From the IMG/VR virus record IMGVR_UViG_2706794697_000014: a stretch of 45,417 bases of DNA; one strand, given 5' to 3'. The notes below the pieces were generated by a model, which was not told the DNA's origin, did not search any database, and saw only the letters and a program-made list of their open reading frames with translations. A program made the translations under genes and the position numbers. Origin of the DNA: a virus. Its lineage: Duplodnaviria; Heunggongvirae; Uroviricota; Caudoviricetes. This document shows positions 5,309-45,417 of this stretch, one piece after another; the first letter of the stretch is position 1, and every line of letters begins with the position of its first letter.

Positions 5309-5893
5309 TTACTCCATAACAGGGACCGCAGGCCACTCAATATCAGGTGCAGTTGATGTATCAACACGGTTCAGCAACACCCGATACTTCTTCCAGGCTT
5401 CCAGCAACGAGTTTTCTTCCTCCGTTGCGATCTCCAGATCTACAGCATCCTGAAGTGGCGCTATATGCTCACTGGCTACCTGCATCAGGCTGTTTTTTGT
5501 TTCTTCCGCCTCCCGGATCCGGAACAGTTTTTCTGCTTCCGTATCCTTCACCCAGGCTGTGCCGTTCCACTTCTGAAACTCCCCTTCCGGGGATAACCAG
5601 GTAACATTTTCCGGTAACGGACCGAGTTCAGAAATAAATAACGCGTCCCCTGACGCTACGTCATAAACCGTTTTACCCCGATGGTCTTCAACGAGATGCC
5701 ACGATGCCTCATCACTGTTGAAAACAGCCACAAAGCCAGCCGGAATATCTGGCGGTGCAATATAGGTACTGTTTGCTGGCAGACCTGTATGAGGCGGAAT
5801 ATATGCGTCACCTTCACCAATAAATTCATTAGTTCCGGTCAGCAGATTATAAATTTTTATGGTCCGTGGTTGTTCACTCATTCTGAATGCCAT
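5309..5893 (-). CDS. tfa: tail fibre assembly protein
   Basis: 194-aa product [18 protein letters not shown]...[10 protein letters not shown] closely matches lambda Tfa as recalled. Confidence 0.9.
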
Positions 5894-38321: not shown

Positions 38322-38554
38322 GCTGCACCTCCGAGATGCTTCATGTTTTTTCCGGAGCGAAAGGCTATAAGCGGCATACTGACGCGGTAATTACGGCCCA
38401 GCGGTTCACAAATCACCTTCTGGCATTCACGGTCAACCAGGCTAACACGTAGAACATGCCCTGCAGGCGTGGTGTACCACTGCCCAACTGTAGGAATTGA
38501 TATTTTTTTACGCTGAAGCAAACGGCAAATATTGAGGATCAACGGATTAAGCAT
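38318..38554 (-). CDS. hypothetical small protein
   Basis: 78-aa ORF overlapping neighbours by 4-8 nt. Confidence 0.35.
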   Translation of the reverse strand: MLNPLILNICRLLQRKKISIPTVGQWYTTPAGHVLRVSLVDRECQKVICEPLGRNYRVSMPLIAFRSGKNMKHLGGAA

Positions 38555-39383
38555 GACGATGCCCTCCGCTGATATTCAGGAGACGGTGAATATGAAAATT
38601 AGCCTTATCCGCCAGACGAATACGTTCAGCTTGCAAGTTAAGAAGGGTTTCTACCAGAACCTGATGTGCCTGCGGATCCGAAAGAGTTACCTTGCGCAGA
38701 GCACGTAGTGCAGTTGTTACATAACTGAGTTTATGTAAGTCTTCATCATTCAGACGAGTGAGGGCTGGGACAGTAGCCATGATGGCAGCCTCCTTGATCG
38801 GTGAAATACTTCCACCACCGGAAACGCCAATTTCGCTGGTGGTGAACTGAACGGGGTTGGCGTAACCGGTGATCAAGGAAACCGGCGCATCTTTCGATGC
38901 CCCCGCCCAGCCCACCATAACTTTGATGTGAGCAAATGCGGACGATAAAAAAGACGCTGGCGCGTCATATATCGCCTTGATCAATTCCAGGACGCCAATC
39001 CCGGCACCCGCTTTATAAGGTGCCTGAACAGTGTAACGTCCCGGAATGGCAGAATCAATGTGCTGGTGGTCCTTCACACTCAACAAAATCACGCCTGAAT
39101 TTCCACAAAGGACTAAAGCACTCATGCGGGTAGTCTTTGCGAAGATAGATAACGCGCTGTGTTTCTGGCTCCCAACGAATAACATGAACATAAAGTCCTC
39201 TTCCGTCACGAAACCAGCGGTTAAGTTCCTGCACAACTCGCCCCCCACAGTCAGGTAAAGTTCTCTGTGGTTACTTACAGCCAGGTGATTTGGTAATCTG
39301 CATTCATGCCGTAACAACAGGTGTTCAGCGACGCTGACCACCAGCTGTTGCGACAAACGGTTATTTGCCGTTAAACTGTTCAT
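38547..39383 (-). CDS. hypothetical early protein
   Basis: 278-aa ORF in early-right operon; no motif I can name. Confidence 0.45.
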   Translation of the reverse strand: MNSLTANNRLSQQLVVSVAEHLLLRHECRLPNHLAVSNHRELYLTVGGELCRNLTAGFVTEEDFMFMLFVGSQKHSALSIFAKTTRMSALVLCGNSGVILLSVKDHQHIDSAIPGRYTVQAPYKAGAGIGVLELIKAIYDAPASFLSSAFAHIKVMVGWAGASKDAPVSLITGYANPVQFTTSEIGVSGGGSISPIKEAAIMATVPALTRLNDEDLHKLSYVTTALRALRKVTLSDPQAHQVLVETLLNLQAERIRLADKANFHIHRLLNISGGHRHA

Positions 39384-40179: not shown

Positions 40180-40248
40180 TATGTACCTCCGGTATACATA
40201 TTACATGATTGAGATGAACCTTCAAGATACTTGTACCTTATCGGTACA
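40180..40248. promoter_or_regulatory. OR-like operator region with two 19-bp palindromic sites
   Basis: ATGTACC-TCCGG-TATACAT (40180-40198) and perfect TTGTACC-TTATC-GGTACAA (40230-40248) between cro and cI. Confidence 0.5.
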
Positions 40249-40265
40249 AAGGTTTTAATTTCTTT

Positions 40266-40940
40266 ATGAAAACAGTCCATGACATCCGGCGGTCTAACGC
40301 CAGAAAACTGAGAGATGGTGTTGGCGGGAATTCTTCCTTTGCCACCATGATTGATCGCGAGCCAACCCAGACCAGCAGGTTTATGGGAGATGGTGCAACT
40401 AAAAATATCGGTGACAGCATGGCACGGCACATCGAAAAATGTTTCGACCTGCCTGTCGGATGGCTTGATCAAGAACACCAGACAACGAACATCACAAAAA
40501 AACCTGACGTTTCAATCACTAACAAACAAATAACGTTAGTCCCTGTCATATCATGGGTACAGGCCGGAGCATGGAAAGAAGTTGGCTATTCTGAGGTTGA
40601 TTTGAGCACAGCAGAAACTTATCCCTGCCCTGTACCCTGTGGCGAAATGACTTATATCTTGCGGGTGATTGGTGATTCAATGATTGATGAGTACCGCCCG
40701 GGAGACATGATTTTTGTTGATCCTGAAGTCCCTGCCTGCCACGGTGACGACGTTATTGCATTGATGCACGATACAGGCGAAACCACCTTCAAGCGGTTGA
40801 TAGAAGATGGAACACAGCGTTATCTCAAAGCATTAAACCCAAACTGGCCTGAGCCTTACATTAAGATTAACGGTAATTGCTCTATAATTGGTACAGTGAT
40901 TTTCTCAGGAAAACCAAGAAGATACATAATAAAGGCCTAA
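40266..40940 (+). CDS. cI: CI-like repressor (S24 LexA-type peptidase family)
   Basis: C-terminal S24 domain (VIGDSMIDEYRPGDMIFVD, TFKRL) preceded by DNA-binding N-terminus. Confidence 0.8.
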   Translation: MKTVHDIRRSNARKLRDGVGGNSSFATMIDREPTQTSRFMGDGATKNIGDSMARHIEKCFDLPVGWLDQEHQTTNITKKPDVSITNKQITLVPVISWVQAGAWKEVGYSEVDLSTAETYPCPVPCGEMTYILRVIGDSMIDEYRPGDMIFVDPEVPACHGDDVIALMHDTGETTFKRLIEDGTQRYLKALNPNWPEPYIKINGNCSIIGTVIFSGKPRRYIIKA

Positions 40941-40950
40941 TCAATATTTA

Positions 40951-40974
40951 TAACCTGCTTCGGCAGGTTTTTTT
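40951..40974 (+). terminator. intrinsic terminator after cI
   Basis: AACCTGC-TTCG-GCAGGTT followed by T7. Confidence 0.65.
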
Positions 40975-40977
40975 ATA

Positions 40978-41005
40978 CTTGACAATGTACCTTTGGGATA
41001 CATAA
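40978..41005 (+). promoter_or_regulatory. PL-like promoter overlapped by third operator
   Basis: TTGACA (40978-40983), 16-nt spacer, CATAAT (41000-41005); operator ATGTACC-TTTGG-GATACAT at 40984-41002. Confidence 0.5.
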
Positions 41006-41445
41006 TGTATCTAAAAGAAACACAGCACAGGCAAGATTAAACAAAATTTGGTTGTAACACGGCGTATGGCACATGCGTCGTTAGCGGTCTGGGGACGTTA
41101 AAGGGGACAATCCACTCCTTGCTCGGGCAAACAAACCAGGTAGCCGGAATGTGCAAGTCAATGATGATGCTGATAAGACGCCTAACCAGCGTGGCGATTC
41201 GGTTTGACGCCTGGGAAGAGACCAGGGTGCAACGATGAGGACATTTATGGAACCGCGACAAAGTGTGGTGCCGTAACTGGCTAAGTGCTCTCAGCGTTGT
41301 GGTGAATGCGCAGGCTGATGCGCGAAAGACATTGCAGCTAATGCGGAAAAGAGCTGTTCGGCGGGGCAATTAAACGCCCGTGAGAGTCTGAAATAACCGC
41401 AAGCCGGAGATCAGCACCGGTCACCACAACAGCCACTGCTTTGGC

Positions 41446-41580
41446 GGTACCAGTTTGTACACTTGCTTCCGGCTGGTACCGCTCTTTTTACAAAACAGAG
41501 AAGAGCATCACCGGACGACGGGCTCATAACCAAATCCATCCGGGCGGCTGCCACCGCAGGTGTTCTTCTCTGTTTTGTGG
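41446..41580 (+). promoter_or_regulatory. two large inverted repeats in the early-left leader
   Basis: GCGGTACCAG/CTGGTACCGC 10-bp perfect inverted repeat (41446-41484) and ACAAAACAGAGAAGA...TCTTCTCTGTTTTGT 15-bp perfect inverted repeat (about 41490-41578). Confidence 0.4.
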
Positions 41581-41626
41581 AGAAACCAACCGACCTTGCA
41601 GGGTCGATATGATTAGGAGCAGCAAA

Positions 41627-41989
41627 ATGGCTAGCGAACGCAGTACTGATGTGCAGGCATTTATTGGGGAGCTGGACGGCGGCGTATTTGAAACCAAAAT
41701 CGGCGCAGTTCTCAGTGAAGTCGCTTCCGGTGTGATGAACACGAAAACCAAAGGTAAGGTCTCACTCAACCTGGAAATCGAACCATTTGATGAGAACCGT
41801 GTGAAAATCAAACACAAACTCTCATATGTTCGCCCGACTAACCGCGGGAAAATTTCCGAAGAAGACACCACCGAAACGCCGATGTATGTCAATCGCGGTG
41901 GTCGCCTGACTATTCTGCAGGAAGACCAGGGACAATTACTGACTCTTGCCGGTGAACCTGACGGAAAACTCCGCGCAGCAGGTCATTAA
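41627..41989 (+). CDS. YfdP-like prophage protein
   Basis: 120-aa ORF with AGGAG RBS; position directly upstream of yfdQ-like gene as in CPS-53. Confidence 0.5.
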   Translation: MASERSTDVQAFIGELDGGVFETKIGAVLSEVASGVMNTKTKGKVSLNLEIEPFDENRVKIKHKLSYVRPTNRGKISEEDTTETPMYVNRGGRLTILQEDQGQLLTLAGEPDGKLRAAGH

Positions 41990-42054: not shown

Positions 42055-42879
42055 ATGTCTCAGAACTTAGACGCAACCGCAATTAATCAAATCCATGCCC
42101 TTATTTCTGCTCAGGGTGTTAATGAAATTATCAGTAAGATTGGTGCCGATGCTGTGGCATTGCCTGAGAATTTCCGCATTCATGATCTGGAAAAATTAAA
42201 TTTAAATCGTTTCCGTTTCCGTGGTGCGCTTTCCACTGCCAGCATCGATGACTTTACTCGTTATTCTAAAGATCTTGCAGATGAAGGCACCCGCTGCTTT
42301 ATCGATGCTGATAATATGCGTGCCGTCAGTGTTCTTAACCTGGGTACTATTGATGAACCAGGTCACGCAGATAACACCGCCACTCTCAAACTGAAAAAGA
42401 CAGCTCCGTTCTCTGCTCTGTTGTCTGTTAATGGCGAGCGTAACTCCCAGAAGTCACTGGCAGAATGGATTGAAGACTGGGCCGACTACCTTGTGGGCTT
42501 TGATGCTAATGGTGACGCCATTCAGGCAACCAAAGCGGCTGCGGCGATCCGTAAAATCACAATTGAAGCGAACCAGACCGCTGATTTTGAAGATAATGAC
42601 TTCAGCGGCAAACGCTCCCTGATGGAGTCTGTCGAAGCGAAGACCAAAGACATTATGCCAGTGGCATTTGAATTTAAATGCGTTCCGTTTGAAGGTCTGA
42701 AAGAACGTCCGTTTAAATTACGCCTCAGCATTATCACTGGCGATCGTCCTGTACTGGTTCTGCGCATTATTCAGCTGGAAGCGGTACAGGAAGAAATGGC
42801 TAACGAATTTCGTGATCTGCTTGTTGAGAAATTCAAAGACAGCAAAGTAGAAACCTTTATTGGTACTTTCACCGCCTGA
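42055..42879 (+). CDS. yfdQ: YfdQ-family (DUF2303) prophage protein
   Basis: 274-aa [24 protein letters not shown]... recalled as YfdQ-like; GTGAGGA RBS. Confidence 0.6.
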
Positions 42880-44428: not shown

Positions 44429-44848
44429 TTACTCATCATCAATAGATGATACGCAATATTTATTTTTAAATTTAAGGTTCTTTGGCGTAACTTCATCAGA
44501 TATATCAAAACCGTCCAGAATTCTATTGAATGTAGCTTCTGGCATATCATCATGAACGGAAATCTCACCCGATCGCTGCTTTCTAACCATGTTATCCACT
44601 CGCCAAATTATAGCTTCAGCGTAAACAACATAACTTGGATGCTTGATAAAGCGATGATCACCAGAATTCAAGACGCAAGACGGATCGTGGGGGACACCAT
44701 CCTTGATACTAGAAATATTAACAACTAAAACACAATAACAATCGTTAACGGGGTAATAAACAGGATCATTACAAATCACATGAAGATGATTGCATGGCCC
44801 AGTTGGGGCAAGCACAGTTCCTTTCCTGTATGGCTGATAATCCGTCAT
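44429..44848 (-). CDS. hypothetical protein, candidate toxin partner of Panacea-like gene
   Basis: 139-aa ORF overlapping upstream gene by 4 nt (ATGA coupling). Confidence 0.5.
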   Translation of the reverse strand: MTDYQPYRKGTVLAPTGPCNHLHVICNDPVYYPVNDCYCVLVVNISSIKDGVPHDPSCVLNSGDHRFIKHPSYVVYAEAIIWRVDNMVRKQRSGEISVHDDMPEATFNRILDGFDISDEVTPKNLKFKNKYCVSSIDDE

Positions 44849-45417
44849 GATAATTGCAAAGAAAATTCCTTAAGTTTCTGAGATTCTTCCATTTTGCCAA
44901 TTATACGATTAGCCTCATCCTCGCTTTTACCCTCACTGATCAGCATTTCTTTCAGGTCTATAGGCTTACGAGAATTGCCAGGATTGTGCCACTCTGGACA
45001 AACGCTTTCTAAATGCGTCATGTTTGCGAGATCAAATCGGTTCATATGCCCATACAGAGAATAGATTTCATCTAAAATCCGGATATCTGCACGGCTCAAC
45101 TCATCAAAGACCTCGTCTGCATCCATTTCCCTCGGATCTGAACGCAACAACACATCATGCCCGTTCGTCTCTATCAGGTTGTACCAGTAGTCACCAATAC
45201 CTTCAGCCTTACCACGAATCAAGTTCAGCGTATTCGACATGACTGGACCAAATTTCATAGAGTAAAGGCTATCTTCGCCGATCATCCTGCCATGCTTCAA
45301 AATCGACTTGCGGTTAGACAGATAGAGCAGCTTCATCAATTTCAGATATGCCATGCGCCCACCTCGCTTAAGAAGTAGGTATGCAGCCATTTGAGCTACT
45401 TTTTCTTCGCAAAACAT
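44845..45417 (-). CDS. Panacea/DUF4065 (SocA/GepA)-like protein; start coincides with window edge
   Basis: N-terminus MFCEEKVAQMAAYLLLKRGGRMAYLKLMKLLYLSNR resembles DUF4065 phage-associated proteins as recalled; ORF begins at the last codon of the window, so may be 5' truncated. Confidence 0.45.
   Translation of the reverse strand: MFCEEKVAQMAAYLLLKRGGRMAYLKLMKLLYLSNRKSILKHGRMIGEDSLYSMKFGPVMSNTLNLIRGKAEGIGDYWYNLIETNGHDVLLRSDPREMDADEVFDELSRADIRILDEIYSLYGHMNRFDLANMTHLESVCPEWHNPGNSRKPIDLKEMLISEGKSEDEANRIIGKMEESQKLKEFSLQLS

Follow-up and report, generated by a model that had tools for sequence, protein, structure and literature searches.

What fills the long interval between the early-left promoter and the first gene of a lambdoid prophage in which no N gene is evident? 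The question was raised by a viral sequence of 45,417 nt (Duplodnaviria; Caudoviricetes; IMG/VR record IMGVR_UViG_2706794697_000014), which carries a prophage immunity region of lambdoid type; "the window" refers here to this whole stretch of DNA. An earlier note had described about 600 nt without a credible open reading frame (ORF) between a PL-like promoter and a yfdP-like gene, with two large inverted repeats inside. The leader indeed measures ~620 nt (41013-41626, + strand) and holds only short, unconserved ORFs before the yfdP-like gene; PGAP output for this region is either blank or consists of spurious "hypothetical proteins". The absence of an evident N gene was also borne out, as no N-like gene stands at the canonical first position of the early-left operon, where the first genes are yfdP and yfdQ.

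The best explanation overall, which we regard as moderately probable, is that this stretch is the untranslated, heavily structured leader of a repressor-controlled PL operon in an N-less lambdoid prophage, and that it is built from mobile RNA modules that are also found in the Qin dicB/dicF operon and in the leader of the phage P1 ban operon. That the modules are functional RNA structures is concluded with high confidence. The order on the + strand is promoter, element A, element B, a variable segment, hairpin 1, hairpin 2, a GGAGAAAC motif, hairpin 3, the ribosome-binding site (RBS) and yfdP. Hairpins 1 and 2 are the two inverted repeats; elements A (41056-41229) and B (41230-41299) lie upstream of both and were overlooked in the first reading.

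Relatives of the leader were gathered in three ways (via the YfdP protein, by DNA pattern and by BLAST). Hairpin 2 is represented by alignment A1 (33 sequences from Escherichia, Shigella, Mangrovibacter, Enterobacter, Leclercia, Kosakonia, Phytobacter, Pseudocitrobacter and viral contigs) and model R1, and element A by alignment A2 (27 sequences) and model R2. Pairing was compared with two controls, in which partners were slid or sequences were shuffled 500 times. When the whole window and, at E <= 10, the leader were scanned against Rfam 15, nothing relevant came up in the leader, and none of its modules was matched.

Hairpin 1 and the terminator stem-loop of DicF

The arms of the first repeat (41444-41453 and 41473-41482) form a perfect 10-bp stem with a 19-nt loop, as the note had described, and the stem grows to 13 bp when G-U pairs are counted. 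Hairpin 1 (41443-41489, + strand; GGCGGUACCAG...CUGGUACCGC) folds at -19 kcal/mol. The note's claim that neither repeat has a U-run after it did not hold: UCUUUUU (41483-41489) follows the first repeat, and its UUUUU begins two nt past the stem. A GC-rich stem thus stands directly before a U-tract, the anatomy of an intrinsic terminator. Among 61 representative relatives (clustered below 97% identity), 58 carry a GC-rich hairpin of 8-24 pairs (-12 to -30 kcal/mol) that stops 1-3 nt short of a tract of 5-8 T. Stem sequences differ widely (GCGGUACCAG, GCGGCGUC, GCGGCAUC, UGCCCAUC, CUGGCGG and GGGGCGGUAAC are examples). A stem and U-run that are kept despite unrelated stem sequences are the signature of a conserved intrinsic terminator, and we conclude with moderate confidence that hairpin 1 terminates transcription.

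The leader of phage Ayreon, 90% identical overall to that of the window, contains a 123-nt block that matches, at 89% identity, the Qin sequence immediately preceding dicF, and hairpin 1 occupies the dicF position. A profile of the hairpin-1 family matched dicF nt 14-53 together with the U-tail (E = 2.4e-4), the sole significant match in a small test set. UUUGGCGGUACCAGUUUGUAC in the window corresponds to UUUGGCGGUAUCAGUUUUAC in DicF; in a longer comparison, UUUGGCGGUACCAGUUUGUACACUUGCUUCCGGCUGGUACCGCUCUUUUU of the window is set against UUUGGCGGUAUCAGUUUUACUCCGUGACUGCUCUGCCGCCCUUUUU of DicF. As expected of a DicF relative, the 3' terminator stem-loop and its U-tail lie within a prophage operon of the dicB/PL type. 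Even at E <= 10, the Rfam DicF model (RF00039, gathering threshold 48 bits) matched neither 40900-41700 or 41380-41500 of the window nor the DicF-looking relative L009; in a positive control, the same library scored Qin dicF at 76.7 bits. The DicF 5' seed (UUUCUGGUGACG) is absent from 41420-41443, and DicF-like pairing with ftsZ (-60 to +40) was not above shuffles in a crude test (z = +0.28 vs. -1.43 for DicF). Because the Rfam model is silent, the 5' seed is missing and the ftsZ complementarity is at chance, we do not consider this to be a DicF gene; judged by the sequence comparisons, hairpin 1 is a homologue of the terminator stem-loop of DicF.

Pairing of the hairpin-1 loop with the downstream GGAGAAAC motif was considered and rejected. 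It reaches 7-9 nt in ~15 of 56 lineages, and the 6 nt found in the window are at chance level. A 9-nt complementarity was seen in lineages L014, L132, L141, L202, L010, L168, L171 and L214 (e.g., UUUCUCUAC with GUGGAGAAA).

Hairpin 2 and its initiator-tRNA-like tip

The second repeat was likewise recovered, its perfect 15-bp arms (41490-41504 and 41564-41578) lying inside a 25-nt arm pair with 84% complementarity. The full structure, hairpin 2 (41483-41586, + strand), is a three-way junction. Its closing stem P1 pairs 41490-41509 with 41559-41578 (20 bp) and is extended by pairing of 41485-41489 with GGAGA at 41579-41583, so that the closing stem (20-25 bp) begins within the U-tract of hairpin 1. 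P2 pairs 41511-41517 with 41537-41543 (7 bp) and leads into an apical 3-bp stem, and P3 pairs 41544-41547 with 41554-41557 (4 bp).

Both checks named in the note, folding and covariance across relatives, gave positive results: the region 41436-41626 folds at -85.7 kcal/mol (z = -6.6 vs. 200 shuffles), and both hairpins are kept with compensatory changes across genera. For hairpin 2, 92.3% of alignment cells are paired vs. 41-58% when partners are slid, 15 pairs are compensatory, and 0 of 500 shuffles did as well; the 20 pairs of P1 and the 5 pairs with the U-tract are formed in 94 and 91% of cells, respectively. Model R1 scores 107.4 bits on the + strand vs. 39 bits on the - strand. This asymmetry, together with the G-U pairs, assigns hairpin 2 to RNA of the + strand.

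The same data bear on a role at the DNA level (an operator, a recombination site or a miniature transposon) or in coding (an N-terminal extension of YfdP, or small ORFs), which we consider extremely improbable. A reading frame open from 41441 to 41989 spans both hairpins in frame with yfdP, and some deposited genomes have "hypothetical proteins" annotated here. However, P3 occurs in lengths of 14, 15, 16, 17 nt and longer (the variation is 1-25 nt among relatives), and these changes break any reading frame and rule out coding; indels that are not multiples of three are found in the hairpin-1 loop as well. Against a DNA-level role, the compensatory changes preserve pairing and not sequence, the G-U pairs and the strand asymmetry (107 vs. 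39 bits) favor RNA, and the position in the prophage is always the same, with a median of one copy per genome. Hairpin 2 precedes differing first genes (yfdP-like or RdgC-like), and in contig L196 it comes straight after a promoter-like sequence, with neither a long leader nor a terminator. It is therefore an autonomous module and not an operator of yfdP.

The apical hairpin of P2, (C)GGG-CUCAUAA-CC(A) (41519-41532, + strand), is the invariant core of hairpin 2 (columns G39-U45 of A1). The family consensus, CGGGCUCAUAACCC, is a 14-nt exact match to E. coli initiator tRNA (positions 29-42 of the metZ string). The matched part is the anticodon stem-loop, with the three G-C pairs characteristic of initiators and the CUCAUAA loop that contains the CAU anticodon. 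The window copy shares 13 nt with metZ, as it has A at 41532 in place of C. C is present at this position in 31 of the 33 aligned relatives and A only in the window and one identical contig; the A abolishes the outer G-C pair of the tRNA-like stem. CAU is retained in 64 of 66 distinct contexts, paralogues included, a count partly biased by ascertainment because one of the collecting DNA patterns demanded CTCAT. Related long-stem modules in P1 and other phages retain GGG, NNCAUAN and CCC followed by AAUC.

This likeness suggests an alternative in which hairpin 2 would be a stable small RNA working mainly in trans, either as a mimic or decoy of the tRNA-fMet anticodon arm or by pairing through its CAU loop, with processing being only its source. 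We find such a role unlikely. The 14-nt identity falls in the invariant columns of the family, GGG/CCC and CAU are kept in the paralogues of P1 and other phages though loop positions 1-2 and 6-7 vary, and tRNA genes occur in homologous leaders. The copy is nevertheless limited to the anticodon arm: ARAGORN found no tRNA in the window, and Rfam gave no tRNA match at hairpin 2. The full-length alignment to metZ scored 32, which is only modestly above shuffles (18.4 +/- 3.6, maximum 36). In some copies the positions equivalent to U33 and A37/A38 are variable, one G-C pair is lost in the window copy, and a search of the entire window for an antisense target of the P2 loop found no complement. A role in trans would be compatible with the processing model described below and not opposed to it; no function is supported for the tRNA-like hairpin.

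A more specific proposal is a long shot: the phage would use hairpin 2, probably once RNase III has released it, to imitate the anticodon arm of initiator tRNA and engage the usual reader of that arm. If it were true, the candidate partners would be the 30S P site with IF3, methionyl-tRNA synthetase, and VapC-type toxins that cleave tRNA-fMet; as a VapC decoy, hairpin 2 would protect the induced phage. An RNA counter-defence or translation-control device would then lie unannotated in ~46% of complete E. coli genomes. The copied anticodon arm thus raises hypotheses on phage control of translation or defence.

Candidate processing sites and elements A and B

The Qin prophage provides the closest comparison for the leader. 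There, the DicF hairpin functions as a leaky Rho-independent terminator that yields terminated ydfABC-dicF transcripts and longer read-through transcripts, the polycistronic RNA is cut by RNase III as well as RNase E, and RNase III cuts define where a 190-nt DicF species begins (its 5' end) and where the 72-nt form stops (its 3' end, 19 nt past the terminator; PMC10448788, PMC5069750). On the 5-kb Qin dicB stretch (L350), we mapped the 5' end of the 190-nt species to position ~2746, in the 3' arm of a long stem, and model R1 weakly matches this stem (L350 2671-2761, E = 0.046). The Qin ydfC-dicF-dicB leader and that of the window both belong to repressor-controlled early-left-type operons of lambdoid prophages. 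In both, a terminator (leaky by the Qin data, of terminator-type anatomy here) is followed by downstream genes, and long CAAC.../...GUUGUGG stems lie nearby, one of them an RNase III site in Qin (PMC10448788; PMC5069750). Qin differs in that the three-way junction of hairpin 2 is missing, and R2 found no element A in L350.

Element B is a second long stem of this type in the window (41230-41299, + strand). It pairs CAACGAUGAGGACAUUU (41230-41246) with AAGUGCUCUCAGCGUUG (41283-41299) in 15 of 17 positions (16 of 17 in homologues from relatives), and GUGGUGAAUGCGCAGGCUGAUGCGC lies directly 3' of the stem. Element B, P1 of hairpin 2 and the Qin stem have a common make-up, CAAC...GAGCAU / GUGCUC...GUUGUGG, and element B is a paralogue of the hairpin 2 closing stem and of the RNase III-cleaved Qin stem. 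P1 has the length of an RNase III substrate, in that its double-stranded RNA is mostly regular and spans about two turns (at least 20 bp). A helix of at least 20 bp that separates the first gene from a promoter-proximal RNA element is also found in the RNase III leader hairpins of the lambda N-leader, the T7 early sites and metY-nusA-infB. metY-nusA shows the same succession of an initiator tRNA, leaky terminators and then an RNase III hairpin. These hairpins have no sequence relationship to hairpin 2, whose stem encloses a conserved branched RNA with an invariant loop and whose cleavage is predicted.

By analogy with Qin dicF, the leader may work as follows. Upon derepression, a fraction of transcripts would stop at hairpin 1, giving a ~475-nt non-coding leader RNA and lowering expression of yfdP, yfdQ and xis. 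Transcripts that read through would fold hairpin 2. RNase III could then cut both long stems (that of element B and the hairpin 2 closing stem P1), a step to which we attach moderate to low confidence, and RNase E could cut nearby single strands; a cut 19 nt past hairpin 1, as in Qin, would land in the 5' arm of P1. Such cleavage would release small stable RNAs (a hairpin-1 RNA and a P2-P3 RNA) and leave a yfdP mRNA that starts near the GGAGAAAC motif, its new 5' end protected by hairpin 3. Small RNAs processed from a prophage early operon are already known from dicF, and the leader would extend this paradigm to a modular family of structured RNAs.

The earlier note had offered three readings: RNA structures that act in cis on elongation or antitermination, sites of processing, and a small RNA. 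Structured RNA on the + strand is supported by the covariation, the G-U pairs and the 107 vs. 39 bits, and processing or a small RNA fits best, given the kinship of hairpin 1 with the DicF terminator and the Qin-like stems. The antitermination option did not fare as well: hairpin 1 is of the terminator type, hairpin 2 lies downstream of a terminator, and the tests for put elements described below failed.

Several observations weigh against the processing model. The loop of hairpin 1 is 13-19 nt or more, vs. 3-8 nt in typical terminators, and a simple terminator consensus scan did not list hairpin 1. At 14.7 bits, R1 matches the Qin stem cleaved by RNase III only weakly, and every processing step proposed for the leader is drawn from the Qin analogy. 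The model leaves unexplained the strict conservation of the P2 loop, all of element A, and conserved internal mismatches in P1 (at one pair in 27 of 33 sequences) and P2. The A at 41532 of the window is moreover a substitution in the most conserved hairpin.

Element A (41056-41229, + strand) is a pseudoknotted RNA of ~170 nt with seven helices. H1 is a hairpin with the invariant apex UAUGGCACAUG; H2/H3 form a long hairpin with a UCCUU-type loop and a GUA bulge, H4 is variable, H5 is accompanied by the pseudoknot CACC/GGUG, and H6 has a GAAGAG loop. The window subfamily carries a compensatory A-U inside the pseudoknot. Pairing is found in 91.8% of cells vs. 30-41% when slid, 20 pairs are compensatory, and 0 of 500 shuffles matched the observed values on all five measures. 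R2 scores the element at 128.6 bits (E = 2e-33). The element also occurs in P7, D6, phiV10-type and other phages, and in the P1 ban leader (124.6 bits), where it lies 5 nt past tRNA-Ile and ~100 nt before ban; the 15 nt preceding it are identical in P1 and the window. No function is supported for element A.

The P1 ban-operon leader runs from the C1-controlled promoter Pban through a "dicF-like region" and three tRNA genes to ban. Besides element A, it shares with the window a long, mostly non-coding early leader and three to four long-stem modules related to hairpin 2, two of which have GGG-NNCAUAN-CCC hairpins. It differs in the order and number of modules and in the real tRNAs interspersed among them, and the modules are unannotated. 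They lie at L349 2043-3076 (+ strand; 69056-70089 of the record), where L349 is the P1 locus, opposite the annotated minus-strand ORFs plp and upl, which may be questionable for this reason. The tRNAs of the P1 leader are tRNA-Asn, tRNA-Thr and tRNA-Ile (L349 2335-2488 and 3920-3995). A real tRNA gene is also present in the homologous leader of Phytobacter just upstream of hairpin 1 (L018 2223-2296), and tRNA-like T-arm fragments were seen in the leaders of other contigs. No report of a function for the P1 ban-leader modules was found in the literature searched, searches on P1 ban-leader RNAs and on initiator-tRNA mimics in prophages found no relevant paper, and no description of hairpin 2 or element A was found.

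The position of element A raises a rival explanation, RNA-only processive antitermination of the put type, in which element A and/or hairpin 2 would modify RNA polymerase to read through terminators in place of N. Specialists have suggested a mechanism of this sort for this phage group (PMC12315714), and the early-left operon has no N gene. Element A lies upstream of a conserved terminator, and in several relatives no more than ~10 nt separate it from the predicted transcript start, a placement like that of putL (PMC9378689). Hairpin 2 follows a promoter-like sequence directly in L196, and both RNAs have complex conserved folds. We nevertheless hold put-like antitermination to be improbable: the support is only positional and the membership tests fail. 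The HK022 putL/putR and the annotated HK639 putL sequences were read, and neither R1 nor R2 matched the put-bearing loci of HK022 and HK639 at E <= 1. The put RNAs are likewise promoter-proximal structured RNAs of N-less lambdoid phages, but they measure ~70 nt with two stems, vs. ~170 nt with a pseudoknot, or a three-way junction, here. R1 and R2 found one copy each of hairpin 2 and element A in the window and none in the PR operon. In nearly all relatives hairpin 2 lies downstream of the hairpin-1 terminator, and an R2 scan of 61 loci, most of them with hairpin 2, recovered element A in only a minority. In P1, element A is preceded by a tRNA and closely followed by ban, and no intervening terminator was noticed. 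A short string shared with put, ACGGCG...CAUGCGUCG, is present in H1 of the window's element A. The match is probably coincidental since the string sits in a covarying stem, and "CAUGCGUCG", shared with putL, is lost in other subfamilies as that stem covaries.

Other candidates of this kind were rejected. A boxA-like CGCUCUUUUUACA at 41480-41492 could suggest a lambda-type nut site, but relatives carry CGCAAUUUUUU or CGCCCUUUUU, and N is not the first PL gene. Look-alikes of T-box, ops and boxA (GGUACCGC, GGCGGUA and CGCUCUU) were either not conserved or not detected by models.

A riboswitch or attenuator, in which element A would be an aptamer for a ligand or factor that sets the fraction of transcripts stopped at hairpin 1, is highly unlikely. 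As such a device would, element A contains a pseudoknot and many invariant unpaired bases and lies ahead of a terminator. However, more than 200 nt of variable, modular sequence separate it from hairpin 1, and no conserved alternative pairing was found between the two. The two also occur independently, element A having no following terminator in P1 and hairpin 1 being found elsewhere without element A, which makes a link between them unlikely. Rfam gave no riboswitch match.

Operon setting, distribution and neighbouring RNAs

The cI-like S24 repressor gene (40266-40940, + strand) ends in an intrinsic terminator (40952-40975, + strand; 7-bp stem, 4-nt loop and T-run), which directly adjoins the PL-like sigma-70 promoter TTGACA(40979)-16-CATAAT(41006) (40979-41006, + strand; 11 of 12 consensus matches). 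In Ayreon, both the terminator and the promoter are annotated. Operator-like half-sites TGTACC...GATACA (40986-41022) overlap the promoter and resemble a related palindrome, TTGTACCGATAAGGTACAA, near PR (40231-40249). The transcript is inferred to start near 41013. The cro-like and CII-like genes lie on the opposite (PR) side of the immunity region.

At the distal end of the leader, a conserved motif, UGUGGAGAAAC(C/U)AAC (41576-41590, + strand), lies at the 3' foot of hairpin 2 and persists in relatives that lack hairpins 1 and 2. It recurs at 39400-39386 (- strand), in the last codons of the CII-like gene, and also resembles the ftsZ initiation region CGGAGAGAAACUAUG, a DicF target. Hairpin 3 (CGACC-UUGCAG-GGUCG, 41591-41606, + strand) is GC-rich, has an NGCA-type loop and stands just upstream of the RBS; its arms vary among relatives yet pair (GGCGG/CCGCC, CGACC/GGUCG, GCCC/GGGC and GCGCC/GGCGC). 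Kissing of the P3 loop with the UGCA loops of hairpin 3 was rejected, as the loops do not covary.

The Shine-Dalgarno sequence AGGAG (41615-41619, + strand) is followed by the yfdP-like coding sequence, the first gene of the operon (ATG at 41627, stop at 41989, + strand; "protein YfdP" in PGAP), and yfdQ (42055-42879, + strand). The first genes match phrog_204 at 1e-49 (the yfdP-like gene) and phrog_210 at 2e-119. Downstream of yfdQ are a 277-aa ORF and then the excisionase gene, beside which two overlapping ORFs (44429-45417, - strand; 139 aa, and 190 aa reaching the window end) have the look of a toxin-antitoxin pair. In the K-12 prophage CPS-53, a copy of yfdP (L001 9248-9604) lacks the whole leader, and its match covers just the ~33 nt that lead up to and into the start codon; K-12 data sets are thus uninformative on these RNAs. 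K-12 pawZ, considered as a possible RNA, is a tRNA pseudogene at attR.

The region of hairpins 1 and 2 is present in 2,491 of 5,426 complete E. coli genomes (46%), with up to 5 copies per genome, and element A in 1,376 (25%), P1-type plasmids included. The modular RNA family is common to lambdoid phages (SfV, SfII, ST64B, mEp460, cdtI and Stx2 phages) and P1. Hairpin 2 and element A are new to Rfam 15, from which two well-supported RNA families are thus missing, and the modules are candidates for control of early-left transcription in N-less lambdoid phages.

Other RNAs were noticed elsewhere in the window. In the PR operon, 38835-39023 (- strand) holds Rfam matches to isrK (64 bits) and C4 antisense RNA (82 bits; 38835-38922) back to back; C4/CI antisense RNA (RF01695) gave no match in 40900-41700. 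The pair lies inside an ORF (38547-39383), where deposited phage genomes have a 278-aa "immunity region" coding sequence. The C4 loop UUUCCUUGAUCA is complementary to UGAUCAAGGAGG, the RBS of a 77-aa ORF that starts at 38780 (- strand), an arrangement of the P1 c4/icd-ant type. Between the CII-like gene and isrK, ~360 nt (39024-39383, - strand) are ORF-poor and contain a CAAC...GUUG long stem like that of the PL leader; they may be a structured non-coding stretch of the PR operon itself. Finally, a full-length match to Rfam IS009 (224.6 bits) was found at 5352-5550 (- strand), elsewhere in the prophage.

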